The notes under the pieces: model-generated
Database searches by the model: none
What the model was told of the DNA's origin: nothing
Seen by the model: only the letters and a program-made list of their open reading frames with translations
Position numbers and translations under genes: made by a program
Part shown: positions 9,875 to 15,285 of the stretch, in pieces
How the letters are laid out: the number at the start of each line of letters is the position of its first letter
Position numbering within the stretch: position 1 is the stretch's first letter
Source of the DNA: Escherichia coli
Lineage (GTDB): Bacteria > Pseudomonadota > Gammaproteobacteria > Enterobacterales > Enterobacteriaceae
Direction: 5' to 3' (one strand)
DNA length: 64,000 bases
Assembly (NCBI RefSeq): GCF_013315695.1
Contig: NZ_CP054353.1

Positions 9875-9883
9875 CACAAAGCG
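9875..9883. repeat. Left copy of 9-bp target-site duplication CACAAAGCG flanking IS1
   Basis: Identical 9-mer immediately outside both IS1 termini. Confidence 0.9.
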
Positions 9884-9898
9884 GGTAATGACTCCAAC

Positions 9899-10402
9899 TT
9901 ATTGATAGTGTTTTATGTTCAGATAATGCCCGATGACTTTGTCATGCAGCTCCACCGATTTTGAGAACGACAGCGACTTCCGTCCCAGCCGTGCCAGGTG
10001 CTGCCTCAGATTCAGGTTATGCCGCTCAATTCGCTGCGTATATCGCTTGCTGATTACGTGCAGCTTTCCCTTCAGGCGGGATTCATACAGCGGCCAGCCA
10101 TCCGTCATCCATATCACCACGTCAAAGGGTGACAGCAGGCTCATAAGACGCCCCAGCGTCGCCATAGTGCGTTCACCGAATACGTGCGCAACAACCGTCT
10201 TCCGGAGCCTGTCATACGCGTAAAACAGCCAGCGCTGGCGCGATTTAGCCCCGACATAGCCCCACTGTTCGTCCATTTCCGCGCAGACGATGACGTCACT
10301 GCCCGGCTGTATGCGCGAGGTTACCGACTGCGGCCTGAGTTTTTTAAGTGACGTAAAATCGTGTTGAGGCCAACGCCCATAATGCGGGCTGTTGCCCGGC
10401 AT
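9899..10402 (-). CDS. insB: IS1 transposase InsB reading frame (made as InsAB' fusion by -1 frameshift)
   Basis: 167-aa ORF ...[65 protein letters not shown]; A6C slippery run (minus strand, plus-strand T-run 10340-10345) in the insA/insB overlap. Confidence 0.93.
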
Positions 10403-10596
10403 CCAACGCCATTCATGGCCATATCAATGATTTTCTGGTGCGTACCGGGTTGAGAAGCGGTGTAAGTGAACTGCAGTTGCCATGTTTTACGGCAGTGAGA
10501 GCAGAGATAGCGCTGATGTCCGGCGGTGCTTTTGCCGTTACGCACCACCCCGTCAGTAGCTGAACAGGAGGGACAGCTGATAGAAACAGAAGCCAC
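10321..10596 (-). CDS. insA: IS1 InsA (transposition inhibitor / DNA-binding protein)
   Basis: 91-aa [46 protein letters not shown]... Confidence 0.95.
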
Positions 10597-10646
10597 TGGA
10601 GCACCTCAAAAACACCATCATACACTAAATCAGTAAGTTGGCAGCA

Positions 10647-10970
10647 TCACCCACAAAGCGTATAATTTAATAAGCGTCCTAAACCACTGACGGTTTGTGA
10701 TAACGCTTCTTCTACTGCGCCCACCGAGCCATAAATCACCAGCGCGCCGCTAAAACGGTCGAGAAAACCGATATGCACATCGGCGGCTTTCAACGCTAAA
10801 TCACCGGCGATCATCGCCGTTTCTCCGGGAGTTAGCGTCATAATGCCAATTGCGCCCGCATCCGGAACGCCGATTTTCTTCGCCAGTTCCTCGCCGGGAT
10901 GCGCGATGAGATGCGCCAGTGTGACCTGTTTACCGGGCACAAATTCCTGAATGATGCGTTCTTTATCCAT
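10647..10970 (-). CDS. eutS: Microcompartment shell protein EutS, 3' end altered by IS1 (ends ...NYTLCG; stop lies inside IS1)
   Basis: Starts [15 protein letters not shown]...; reading frame runs into the IS1 right end; deleting IS1 plus one TSD copy restores ...LCEMTKS followed by TAA (rc of 9858-9860). Confidence 0.85.
10652..10660. repeat. Right copy of 9-bp target-site duplication CACAAAGCG flanking IS1
   Basis: Identical to 9875-9883. Confidence 0.9.
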
Positions 10971-11335
10971 GAGTCGCCGCCTGTGAAAAACTTTCGTGTA
11001 TCGTGACAATTTTTCGTCAGAGTAAATAACAAAATTCGGCAAGCGCGTTTAAAAGGTGAGGTAGATCACGAACAATGGGGAAAATACTTTATGCAAAGAA
11101 AATCACATACATCACATGAATACAAACAGGAGTCGATAAGTTTTATTTATCATATGTTACCCACCCCATTTTTAATGGTTCTTCGCATAACCCTATGTAG
11201 CATTTATAATAATTATCAGAATACATATCCCATGAACTGTTGTATTCTGAAAATATTATTATACTCACCCCATTTAAGGTACAACATAAACGATGAGTTT
11301 ATTCAGGGCATAAAAGAAATGGATGGATACCTGTA

Positions 11336-12406
11336 ATGAAAATTCACTACCTTGTCACCACTCTCGAAACGGGAGGCGCTGAATTTGCGATTCCTGATAT
11401 TGTGACTACTCTACAAGATCTTGGTCATGAGGTGAAAATTTATGTATGTGAACCCCGAGATATGGGCGCGGCACCGCGTCTGAAAGCGGCCGGTTTATCC
11501 TGGTGTTTATTATCAAATCGGCGGCGTTCTGTTCCAGTGCTTGTCGGTGCTTATCTGGCAAAAATCATTTACGACAAACCCGATCTCATCTGGACTTCGT
11601 TAAGTTGGGGGACGCGTATTGGACAATGGGGCGGCCGACTTATGGGCATTCCGGTTATCAGTTTTAAACATAGCGCCAGCGTAAAACCAGCAACCTGGCG
11701 TATGCGCAGCATGTCACGTTTATGGATTGGCGATTCTGCAACCGTAACTCAATACCTGCATGAAACCATGCGGATCCCGAAGCAACAAGTGATGTGCTGG
11801 CCTTTTTTTCAGGCTAATCCGCAAGCTGCTCAAGCGAAAAAGTGGGACGGGGTATCAGTTTTACAATTAGGCACCGTTGGTCGCCTGCATGAAGTTAAAA
11901 ATTACGCAGGATTAATTACTGCACTCGCTTCGTTTGTCGATAAAAACCCGCAATTGCGCTCGCGAATCCGACTAACCCTTCTCGGTGAGGGAGCCGAACA
12001 AGAGGTTTTGAAAAAGACCATAACACAACACGCCATGGAGGATGTAGTTTGTTTAGCGGGGTTTTCTGCGGATATCGAAAATTTTCTTGCCGGATTACAT
12101 GTCTATATCCAAACTTCCCGCTACGAAGGGATGTGCCTCGCCGCACACGAAGCCATGAATGCAGGGCTTGCGATCATTACGCCCCCTGTAGGTGAACTTA
12201 AAGAATCGGTAATTGATGGTCATACCGGCTATATACTTAATGGCGAACTAACTCCAGCACTGGAGGAAGTACTTAACCGTATTTTCAATGAACCCACAGA
12301 ATTACAACACTATGGGCAAAATGCGCGTCAGTATGTATTACAGAAATTCAGCCATGAAAATTTTGTCCAGTCTGCAATCAACATTGTTAATAGACTTATT
12401 CACTGA
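11336..12406 (+). CDS. Uncharacterised GT4-family (GT-B fold, Glycos_transf_1-like) glycosyltransferase, 356 aa, in an AT-rich segment
   Basis: N-terminal LETGGAEF...LGHEV motif and C-terminal E-X7-E motif (YEGMCLAAHEAMNAGLAIITPPVGELKESVIDGHTGYIL); about 42% GC over the first 120 nt by manual count; no counterpart in K-12 gene order as recalled. Confidence 0.8.
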   Translation: MKIHYLVTTLETGGAEFAIPDIVTTLQDLGHEVKIYVCEPRDMGAAPRLKAAGLSWCLLSNRRRSVPVLVGAYLAKIIYDKPDLIWTSLSWGTRIGQWGGRLMGIPVISFKHSASVKPATWRMRSMSRLWIGDSATVTQYLHETMRIPKQQVMCWPFFQANPQAAQAKKWDGVSVLQLGTVGRLHEVKNYAGLITALASFVDKNPQLRSRIRLTLLGEGAEQEVLKKTITQHAMEDVVCLAGFSADIENFLAGLHVYIQTSRYEGMCLAAHEAMNAGLAIITPPVGELKESVIDGHTGYILNGELTPALEEVLNRIFNEPTELQHYGQNARQYVLQKFSHENFVQSAINIVNRLIH

Positions 12407-12410
12407 ATAA

Positions 12411-12445
12411 GGCAGTAAAAAGGCATTTTTTGGTACTGCCTTTTC
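12411..12445 (+). terminator. Putative intrinsic terminator of the glycosyltransferase gene
   Basis: GGCAGTAAAAA / TTTTTGGTACTGCC stem followed by TTTT, 5 nt after the stop. Confidence 0.5.
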
Positions 12446-12949
12446 ACCGAATACTATGGTTATCGTACTTGTCGTGGCGATGGGAAAAGTCGTTACAGTT
12501 TTCATTCCCTTGCATAGCCGTGACGCCCCCTTTTCACACACAAAGAAAATGGTGGATGTTTTATACTCCTCCACCACCAAAGGCAGTCAAGATGGATAAG
12601 TTAATGCTCGCCCATGCCCCCAATTTATGGGCCATGGAAAAACGTCTTGCAAACAGCTGTGTACGGGAATAATAGCAGTGCGGGTATGAGCAAGACATTA
12701 TTTTATCATGACGGGCAAAATTGCAGCCGGACCTAGGGCGGTGCATTGCAGATGCTGAAACTGGACCCGCTATGTTTATTATCTCCAGAATTTAATGCGT
12801 CTGGAAGTACCTACAACTGCTGCGCCTTTTATTGATGGCATGCATACGCTTTCTGGTGTTGGCGACGTTACATTCATGATGCCTGGCTACAACTTAAGGG
12901 CTCGCCTCAGCAATTCTGAGTGGATGTACAGCGGCGTATACAGAAGTGG

Positions 12950-12988
12950 GTCAGCAAAACCGCTTACCCCGAATAAACAGGGTAAGCG
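12950..12988 (-). terminator. Putative intrinsic terminator of maeB
   Basis: Perfect 9-bp stem CGCTTACCC/GGGTAAGCG just 3' of the maeB stop, followed on the minus strand by GUUUUG. Confidence 0.5.
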
Positions 12989-13005
12989 TGATTTAAAGGA
13001 ATGAA

Positions 13006-15285
13006 TTACAGCGGTTGGGTTTGCGCTTCTACCACGGCCAGCGCCACCATGTTGACGATACGACGTACCGATGCGATCGGCGTTAACACGTGAACCGGTT
13101 TCGCCACGCCCATCAGCACCGGACCGACTGTCACACCTTCCGAGCTGGAAACGCGCAGTAAGTTGTAACTAATGCGGGCAGCTTCCATGTTCGGCATCAC
13201 CAGAATATTAGCGGAACCTTTCAAAGGGCTGTCCGGCATACGGTCGTTGCGAATCGCTTCCACCAGCGCTGCATCGCCGTGCATTTCACCATCAATCATC
13301 AGTTCTGGCGCACGTTCCCTGACCAGTTCCAGCGCCTGACGCATTTTGCTCGACGACGGGCAGTCAGAAGAACCAAAGTTGGAGTGCGACAACAGAGCCA
13401 CACGCGGTTCAATACCAAAACGACGAACAGTTTCTGCCGCCATCAAGGTGATCTCCGCCAGCTCTTCTGCATCAGGCTCATCATTGACGTAGGTATCGGC
13501 AATAAAGGTGTTACCACTCGGCAACAGCAGCGCGTTCATGGCACCTGCGGTGTGAACGCCATCGCGATAACCAAAGACATTTTTCACCACGCTAAAGTGT
13601 TCATGATAATCGCCCACCGTACCGCAAATCATTGCATCGGCTTCGCCACGCTGAACCATGATCGCGCCGATCACTGTCGGGTTACTGATCAGCGCACGCT
13701 GCGCCTGCTCCTGAGTGACACCGCGACGCTTCATGATCTGGAAGTATTCGGTCCAGTACTCTTTAAAGCGCGGATCGGATTCGTTATTGACGATCTCAAA
13801 ATCAACACCCGCTTTGATCTGCAAGCCCAGTTTCTGAATGCGCATTTCGATCACGTTCGGACGACCAATAAGGATCGGTTTCGCCAGTCCCAGCGTTACC
13901 AGTTCCTGAGTGGCATGCAGAACGCGCGCCTCTTCCCCTTCCGGCAGAACGACGCGCTTCGGCGCTTTGCGAGCCTGGGAGAAAATCGGCTTCATAAACA
14001 GGTTGGTTTTGTAAACGAACTCCGTCAGCTTGTCGATGTAGACGTCGAAATCAGCAATCGGACGCGTCGCCACGCCCGACTCCATCGCGGCTTTAGCGAC
14101 CGCAGGAGCGATCTTAACGATCAAGCGCGGATCAAACGGTTTTGGAATGATGTATTCCGGACCAAAGCTCAGATCCTGATCGCCATAAGCTGAAGCCACC
14201 ACTTCACTCTGTTCCGCATGGGCCAGTTCTGCAATCGCGTGTACCGCCGCCAGTTTCATCTCTTCGTTGATGGCGGTTGCGCCAACGTCCAGCGCGCCAC
14301 GGAAGATGAACGGGAAGCAAAGCACGTTATTAACCTGGTTCGGGTAGTCGGAACGGCCGGTACAGATGATGGCATCCGGACGCACTTCTTTCGCCAGCGG
14401 CGGCAGAATTTCTGGTTCCGGGTTCGCAAGCGCCAGGATCATCGGCGCACGAGCCATTTTCTTCACCATTTCCTGGGTCAGCACTTTCGGGCCGGAACAA
14501 CCCAGGAAAATATCCGCGCCTTCAATCACATCATCGAGGGTACGTTTGCCGTCATCCACTACCGCATATGCGGCTTTGGTTTCCGCCATGTTTGGCTCAC
14601 GGCCCTGATAGATAACGCCTTTTGAATCGCAAACCACGATGTTATGTTTTTGCAGCCCCAGCGCCACCAGCAGGTTCATACAGGCGATTGCTGCGGCACC
14701 CGCGCCAGAAACCACCATCCGCACGTCGGAGATGTTTTTCTCCACCACGCGCAAGCCGTTGAGGATGGCGGCAGTGCTGATAATTGCCGTGCCGTGCTGA
14801 TCGTCGTGGAATACCGGAATATTCATCCGCTCGCGCAGTTTCTGTTCAATATAGAAACATTCTGGCGCTTTAATGTCTTCGAGGTTGATGCCGCCGAAGG
14901 TCGGTTCGAGCGCAGCGACGACTTCAATAAATTTGTCCGGGTCGAGTTCATCAACTTCAATGTCAAATACATCAATCCCGGCGAATTTCTTAAACAGAAC
15001 ACCCTTGCCTTCCATCACCGGTTTGCCTGCCAGCGCGCCAATGTTGCCTAACCCCAGCACTGCCGTACCGTTAGAGATCACCGCTACCAGGTTACCGCGC
15101 GCGGTATATTTGTAGGCTTTTAACGGGTCTTTTTCGATTTCAAGACAAGGTGCGGCAACGCCTGGTGAGTAGGCCAGCGCCAGATCGCGCTGCGTTGCCA
15201 GAGGCTTGGTTGGAGAAACCTGGATTTTCCCTGGAACTGGAAATTCATGGAAATCAAGTGCACTTTGTTTTAACTGGTCATCCAT
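13006..15285 (-). CDS. maeB: NADP-dependent malic enzyme MaeB (malic enzyme plus PTA-like domain), 759 aa
   Basis: 759-aa [26 protein letters not shown]...; the + strand ORFs inside it are antisense artefacts. Confidence 0.95.

Follow-up and report, generated by a model that had tools for sequence, protein, structure and literature searches.

We find that the DNA between eutS and maeB in a 64,000-nucleotide (nt) stretch of an Escherichia coli genome (contig NZ_CP054353.1; the whole of this stretch is called the window here) holds an intact gene for a family 4 glycosyltransferase (GT4), followed by the unannotated remains of a second gene, which in related genomes encodes a GINT1_N β-propeller protein. 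We hold with moderate confidence that this locus is the remnant of a two-gene cassette in which GT4 is intact and the propeller gene is dead, and whose two products work in sequence on an acceptor of the cell envelope. New here are a pseudogene that lacked annotation, the organisation of the two genes as a cassette, and the existence of three natural states in E. coli (empty, intact and half-decayed); the GT4 gene itself was already annotated. Literature searches on the cassette, the eutS–maeB locus, ST648-specific glycosyltransferases and bacterial GINT1_N proteins returned nothing relevant. An earlier note on this DNA had described a solitary, orphan GT4 in a segment ending at 12450. Its central claim stands, as the gene is not core in most E. 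coli, nor does it fail to match GT4 profile hidden Markov models (HMMs); the inserted DNA reaches ~12960, however, and the orphan status was a misreading that arose because the second gene is a pseudogene taken for intergenic DNA.

The GT4 protein and its decayed partner

The window region is 100% identical to that of E. coli MSB1_4I (NZ_LR898874.1), where the Prokaryotic Genome Annotation Pipeline (PGAP) labels the open reading frame (ORF) 'glycosyltransferase family 4 protein' (WP_001571749.1). This ORF is far longer than expected by chance, and its product, put forward in the earlier note as a 356-residue GT4, matches Glycos_transf_1 (PF00534, E = 9.9e-27, in the C-terminal domain), Glyco_trans_1_4 (PF13692, 6e-20) and, in the N-terminal half, Glyco_transf_4 (PF13439, 2e-7) and Glyco_trans_4_4 (PF13579, 4e-5). 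Both hallmarks noticed beforehand, GGAEF...GHEV and E-X7-E, are present, the former as T12-G13-G14-A15-E16-F17 and G30-H31-E32-V33, the latter as E264-GMCLAAH-E272. Across 37 orthologues E272 is invariant, while E264 and the basic pair for the donor diphosphate, R183 and K188, each reach a conservation of at least 90%, and the window protein keeps all invariant residues of the family. The model of the protein is predicted to contain two Rossmann-like domains, as in a GT-B fold. By every computable criterion (Pfam, E-x7-E and predicted GT-B fold) this is an ordinary GT4, which from its family is expected to take the sugar from a nucleotide-sugar donor and to transfer it with retention of configuration.

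Comparison with characterised GT4s, namely HepE/Alr3699 (4xso), WlaC (6eji), PglA (8dqd), WbnH (4xyw), WaaB (6y6i), WaaG, PimA, BshA and sucrose-phosphate synthase (6kih), gives identities of 14–20% to the GT4s of the Protein Data Bank (PDB) with no neighbour standing out, so that neither donor nor acceptor is transferable by homology. The best NCBIfam match is TIGR03088 (stp2, a glycosyltransferase of the PEP-CTERM/XrtA system; E = 1.2e-34, residues 129–351), of which GT4 is not a member: its 120 bits fall far short of the curated cutoff, 409, and no XrtA/PEP-CTERM system lies nearby.

In Shimwellia and Rouxiella, a 300-residue Pfam GINT1_N gene starts 12 bp past the GT4 stop codon, within differing flanks. 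When these partners are searched against window positions 12300–13100 with tblastn, the Rouxiella and Shimwellia proteins give E-values of 4e-28 and 7e-21, respectively, in colinear matches that run across three frames with internal stops and cover partner residues ~58–71 and 130–300. The homology lies on the same strand as GT4, close 3′ of it and in the position expected for a cassette. Mapped against the intact partner of E. coli sequence type (ST) 648 (locus L010, 4337–5239), the window copy lacks its 5′ ~150 nt including the start codon, has a 181-nt deletion (partner nt 207–387) between TGGCGAT repeats, and carries six small indels (net −3, −1, −1, −18, −8 and −1), frameshifts among them; two in-frame stops have arisen, one at 12734 (TAC to TAG) and one at 12917 (TGG to TGA), and the original stop codon is missing. 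Given these lesions relative to the intact ST648 gene, the segment is, as read from the alignment, a dead partner gene. A 69-residue ORF at 12795–13004 (+), entered as hypothetical protein WP_001330583.1 in the RefSeq records of sister genomes, is one frame of this decayed partner and not a gene. GT4 appears orphan in RefSeq because the partner pseudogene is either unannotated or represented by that hypothetical protein, and the RefSeq annotation of the eutS–maeB locus is incomplete.

What the partner was can be approached through the intact ST648 protein (300 residues), which matches Pfam GINT1_N (E = 4e-35) with a marginal GH43 match, no GH130 match, and no NCBIfam or PHROG family. A single-sequence search of PDB sequences finds nothing significant and a profile search reaches a best E-value of 0.036, so the partner was placed by fold comparison alone. 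Its model (predicted local distance difference test score, pLDDT, 95.6) is that of a five-bladed β-propeller, and the closest folds to this predicted structure are cytoplasmic GH130 β-mannoside phosphorylases and transferases. Characterised GH130 enzymes comprise β-mannoside phosphorylases and dual phosphorylase/mannosyltransferases, among them Teth514_1788 (9fj8) and Uhgb_MS (9erh) (PMC12814180). Identity of the partner to GH130 enzymes and to the related GT108 enzyme of Leishmania (2b4w) is at most 14%, the likeness being one of predicted fold. Neither GT4 nor the partner, taken as the intact ST648 protein, has a signal peptide or membrane segments, and both are read as cytoplasmic. The AlphaFold database holds many proteins of 530–600 residues in which a GINT1_N propeller forms one half, at least one of them described with a formyltransferase N-terminal domain; 'formyl transferase' labels on some stand-alone propellers derive from such fusions, which hint that the propeller is tied to nucleotide-sugar chemistry or modification.

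Three states in E. coli and the cassette in other genera

We surveyed 5,426 complete E. coli genomes and find a relative of the insert in 90, always single-copy and chromosomal, and at the same site in the genomes inspected. The other 5,336 are cassette-free, with a K-12-like empty site in those inspected, and the gene is likewise missing from the K-12-like genome L002, in agreement with the earlier note, in which K-12 has no gene at this place. Both genes are intact in 84 genomes, which carry an almost invariant 'ST648-type' allele with an intact partner that is at least 99% identical in all 84; here the pair is annotated as a glycosyltransferase (WP_022645959.1) and a 'glucosamine inositolphosphorylceramide transferase family protein' (WP_022645960.1). 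An intact GT4 is joined to the pseudogene in six genomes, the pseudogene being 100% identical in all of them; five carry the window allele and the sixth, GF131, is a recombinant. Strains MSB1_4I, AF14 and MS 21-1 are window-type. A further copy of the partner is found in none of the carrier genomes.

The ST648-type cassette sits at the same site and in the same orientation as the window copy, with a 356-residue GT4 that is 91% identical (31 differences) and a right junction at the maeB terminator; unlike the window, its partner is intact. The two alleles share ~88.5–91% DNA identity (synonymous divergence, dS, 0.31), and the upstream region is ~20% different with single-base indels. In GF131 (locus L011, NZ_CP172134.1, 3253–4923), the first ~800 nt of GT4 are ST648-type, while the last ~250 nt and the pseudogene match the window allele exactly, a mosaic that, on sequence comparison, shows homologous recombination between the two cassette alleles. 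The eutQ gene of GF131 is frameshifted.

The orthologues of GT4 form a discrete family, beyond which E-values jump to 1e-13. Identity to the window protein is 91% in other E. coli, ~65% in Shimwellia, Rouxiella and Pluralibacter, 51–58% in Rosenbergiella and Carnimonas, and 35–48% in Acetobacteraceae, sphingomonads, Nevskia and Caulobacterales. A wider survey covered the best 80 of 245 relatives from 100,044 species genomes. Of these 80 loci, 22 have the partner next to GT4, 10 in tandem and 12 convergent and more distant, and the remaining 58 have none within 7 kb; the 10 tandem loci are 10 of the 11 closest relatives. Tandem pairs occur in Shimwellia, Rouxiella, Pluralibacter, Serratia sp. 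M24T3, Acetobacter thailandicus, four Rosenbergiella species and Carnimonas, with spacings of 7–60 bp as measured from ORF or match coordinates; chromosomal site and flanking genes differ from one to the next. The taxonomic ranges of the GT4 and partner families match. As judged by these comparisons, GT4 is the first gene of a conserved, widely exchanged two-gene cassette of GT4 and a GINT1_N β-propeller. A GT4 without an intact partner is not confined to E. coli: Rosenbergiella australiborealis has GT4 with no trace of a partner where four sister species have both, and is an independent case of partner absence.

Acetobacter thailandicus LMG 30826 has two family members (L017 and L038). The first is 62% identical to the E. 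coli GT4 and has a tandem partner like the enterobacterial cassettes; the second, at 43% identity, is typical of Acetobacteraceae. Their co-occurrence points to transfer of the cassette between classes.

Selection on GT4 and possible roles of the pair

Between the window and ST648 alleles, GT4 differs at 99 of 1,068 nt and at 31 residues, with a nonsynonymous divergence (dN) of 0.045, dS of 0.31 and dN/dS of 0.145. The pseudogene, compared with the intact partner over 158 comparable codons, gives dS 0.32, dN 0.144 and dN/dS 0.44; dS is equal for the two genes and dN is three-fold higher in the pseudogene. For comparison, the core genes that flank the locus in these two strains show dS of 0.01–0.17 and dN/dS near 0.01. 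The 903-bp partner has accumulated ~8 disabling lesions and the 1,071-bp GT4 no indels or stops, a split for which P is ~8e-5 given equal decay rates; GT4 was therefore probably kept by selection after the death of its partner. The frequency of GT4 orthologues that have no partner beside them (58 of the 80 loci) and the case of R. australiborealis agree with this.

Two points qualify this reading. Polarised substitutions number 8 nonsynonymous (N) and 16 synonymous (S) on the window branch and 4 N and 23 S on the ST648 branch, and the window changes P220A and T283P fall at sites that are invariant in seven outgroups; together these hint at relaxed constraint on the window branch, although the N/S contrast falls short of significance (Fisher p = 0.19). 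Within the lineage, the five window-type copies are nearly alike, too similar to show selection there. GF131 was considered as an independent lineage in which to look for selection after partner death and was ruled out, as it is recombinant.

The main null hypothesis is that GT4 is a non-functional relic whose partner decayed first, and which is intact by chance or is silent and harmless. The dead partner, the higher N/S and the two changes at otherwise invariant sites all fit a decaying relic, as do a dN/dS ten-fold above that of the flanking core genes and the rarity of the lineage (5–6 genomes). We nonetheless consider it unlikely, in view of the uneven split of lesions, the presence of every invariant family residue, the non-significant N/S difference, and the finding that recombination in GF131 yielded another intact GT4 ORF joined to the pseudogene.

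In the favoured reading, of a cassette remnant whose products work in sequence on an envelope acceptor, GT4 and then the propeller partner would act one after the other on a single sugar acceptor, on the cytoplasmic side of the inner membrane. This acceptor would most likely be a lipid-linked precursor of an envelope glycoconjugate, such as lipopolysaccharide (LPS) core, O-unit, enterobacterial common antigen (ECA) or a glycolipid, and the host's own flippases would then export the modified precursor. In the window strain the GT4 step alone would be left, and hence at most a shortened modification would be made. An envelope role is favoured because the neighbours of relatives are recurrently envelope genes: among more distant family members, TagF-like/Glyphos_transf genes are found at 18 loci and MOP-flippase-like genes at 12, a cluster of LptF, LptG, lipid-kinase-like, metallophosphoesterase and MobA-like nucleotidyltransferase genes recurs at ~10 loci, and GT2 and ArnT-like genes also recur beside family members. 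The best NCBIfam match, TIGR03088, is likewise an exopolysaccharide-associated glycosyltransferase, though GT4 scores below its cutoff.

Four points count against an envelope role. Genes for a flippase, polymerase or priming transferase are missing from the enterobacterial cassette itself; the relatives with envelope genes beside them are only 35–47% identical and may differ in specificity; Bombella-type loci differ in context (FUSC, FAA hydrolase); and structural neighbours of GT4 include enzymes with soluble acceptors, e.g., sucrose-phosphate synthase and BshA. The local context of the window names no acceptor, and here we agree with the earlier note that none is inferable from it.

The main functional rival is a role in the synthesis or recycling of a soluble glycoside in the cytoplasm, for instance a storage oligosaccharide or a compatible solute, which GT4 would synthesise and the GH130-like propeller would phosphorolyse or extend. 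Such a role is consistent with the lack of signal peptides and membrane segments in both proteins, with the lack of a flippase in the cassette, with structural neighbours of GT4 that also include TreT and GlgM beside the two enzymes just named, and with the cytoplasmic GH130 phosphorylases as the closest folds of the partner. Carriers are, moreover, enriched in sugar-rich, osmotically stressful niches (nectar, bee gut, vinegar), as exemplified by Rosenbergiella, Bombella, Saccharibacter, Acetobacter and Zymomonas. We regard it as quite improbable, since no phosphatase, transporter or osmoregulated neighbour recurs, the distant relatives lie beside flippase-like, TagF-like, LptFG, ArnT-like and GT2 genes, and the best HMM relatives are GT4s of exopolysaccharide (EPS), LPS and protein-glycan pathways.

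A more specific and speculative proposal, to which we give a low probability, is that GT4 and GINT1_N constitute an undescribed two-enzyme module, in which the propeller would be a synthetic β-glycosyltransferase or phosphorylase of non-Leloir fold acting on the GT4 product, the pair adding a disaccharide to a lipid-linked envelope glycan (LPS core, ECA or O-unit). If so, the intact form would mark the lineage of the pandemic ST648 clone and would affect recognition by phage, serum or host, and the window lineage would make a truncated, GT4-only version kept by selection. More generally, were the product a surface glycan, it could influence how sensitive ST648, a lineage of clinical importance, is to phage and serum. 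With all three natural states present at one site, a ready-made comparison exists for finding the product of the cassette. A link to sphingolipids, suggested by the family name and by the many carriers among sphingolipid-producing Alphaproteobacteria, was not adopted, Enterobacterales having no sphingolipids.

It is very improbable that GT4 is truly an orphan that arrived by horizontal transfer without a partner and has a promoter and terminator to itself: the ORF is intact in AT-rich DNA, rare in E. coli, without neighbouring annotated glycosyl-related genes and followed by a hairpin, but ~520–550 bp downstream are colinearly homologous to the partner at an E-value that excludes spurious similarity (4e-28), 84 genomes have the intact pair at the same site, and the hairpin is assembled from a deletion junction. 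Equally improbable is a role in anti-phage defence, as a 'conflict system' glycosyltransferase (Pfam GT4-conflict), or an origin as a phage moron by which a receptor is altered: this small, rare and AT-rich gene has weak matches to PF20706 (E = 3.3e-5, much weaker than to the generic GT4 domains) and to a PHROG glycosyltransferase (5.5e-9), yet PADLOC matches zero families, phage genes, an integrase and a tRNA are lacking, the partner has no PHROG match, and no enterobacterial plasmid carries a copy.

The insert, its edges and nearby signals

The features of the locus are collected in Table 1. The edges of the accessory insert were taken from alignment to the empty site of the K-12-like genome L002, where the eutS–maeB gap is 292 bp and gene-free, and to the ST648 allele (L010). 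GT4 is convergent with maeB (13006–15285, −) and, as the earlier note had it, divergent from eutS. The segment had also been described there as AT-rich, with ~42% guanine plus cytosine (GC) over the opening 120 nt of the ORF and less upstream, and our measurements bear this out: GC is 41.7% in those 120 nt and 31.3% in the 265 nt 5′ of GT4 (11071–11335). The entire ORF has 46.2% GC and 41% GC at third codon positions (GC3), compared with 54% and 60% in maeB, and the insert as a whole 44.1%, compared with 53% in the window.

Table 1. Positions of the features at the eutS–maeB locus, in window coordinates
Feature	Position	Strand	Remarks
eutS	10647..10970	−	divergent left neighbour of GT4; last codons changed by IS1A insertion
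Accessory insert	~11070..~12960		replaces 129-bp filler of K-12-like genomes
Promoter-like site	11182..11210	+	TTCGCA, 17-nt spacer, TATAAT; 10/12 consensus matches, match only
Inverted repeat	11212..11254		core CAGAATACA-N17-TGTATTCTG; 14-nt arms 11212–11225 / 11241–11254
GT4 glycosyltransferase gene	11336..12406	+	intact, 356 aa, identical to WP_001571749.1
Hairpin after GT4	12409..12442	+	9-bp stem AAGGCAGUA / UACUGCCUU, then short U run
Partner pseudogene (GINT1_N five-bladed β-propeller protein)	12436..12958	+	unannotated, heavily decayed
maeB terminator hairpin	12961..12988	−	common to genomes without insert; right insert edge

The insert was searched for a tRNA, an integrase ORF, a transposase of its own and flanking direct or inverted repeats, and none was found, in keeping with the earlier statement that no integrase or transposase adjoins the gene; it lacks the integrase or transposase, tRNA target and flanking repeats of a genomic island or mobile element. 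We find it to be low-GC accessory DNA, horizontally acquired and rare in E. coli. That the K-12-type empty site might be a deletion derivative of the cassette was considered and rejected, as the 129-bp filler aligns with a score of 15 against a shuffle mean of 15.0.

A consensus scan places the promoter-like site 125 nt 5′ of the GT4 start codon; it is weaker in the ST648 allele, which has CTCGAA and TTTAAT. The inverted repeat lies directly 3′ of the −10-like hexamer and is kept in the ST648 allele despite the divergence of the region, but its conservation does not extend to other genera; an operator or a hairpin of the leader (5′ untranslated region) are possible readings. A conserved 5′ leader or riboswitch was rejected, with upstream conservation limited to the two E. 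coli alleles and no match in Rfam. In the same 31% GC DNA, an ORF of 81 residues (11091–11336, +) overlaps the GT4 start codon (TAATG); it was rejected as a gene because single-base indels break it in the ST648 allele, and on this comparison is most likely non-coding.

The earlier note had given GT4 its own terminator, and a hairpin does follow the stop codon, with a folding energy of −15.8 kcal/mol for 63 nt (z = −2.3). A consensus terminator scan did not call it, and it is built from the junction of the deletion that took away the 5′ end of the partner, its 5′ arm from the former GT4–partner intergenic DNA and its 3′ arm from partner codons ~52–56. It may be a weak terminator.

Beyond the insert, a 768-bp IS1A element occupies 9884–10651, with its transposase at 9899–10596 (−) and a 9-bp target duplication (CACAAAGCG) at 9875–9883 and 10652–10660, within the last eutS codons. 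EutS now ends in ...NYTLCG* (107 residues) in place of the ...NYTLCEMTKS* (111 residues) found without IS1A. The element is missing from the sister genome AF14. It comes between eutS, which opens the eut operon, and eutPQT with the genes that follow, and is probably polar on ethanolamine utilisation.

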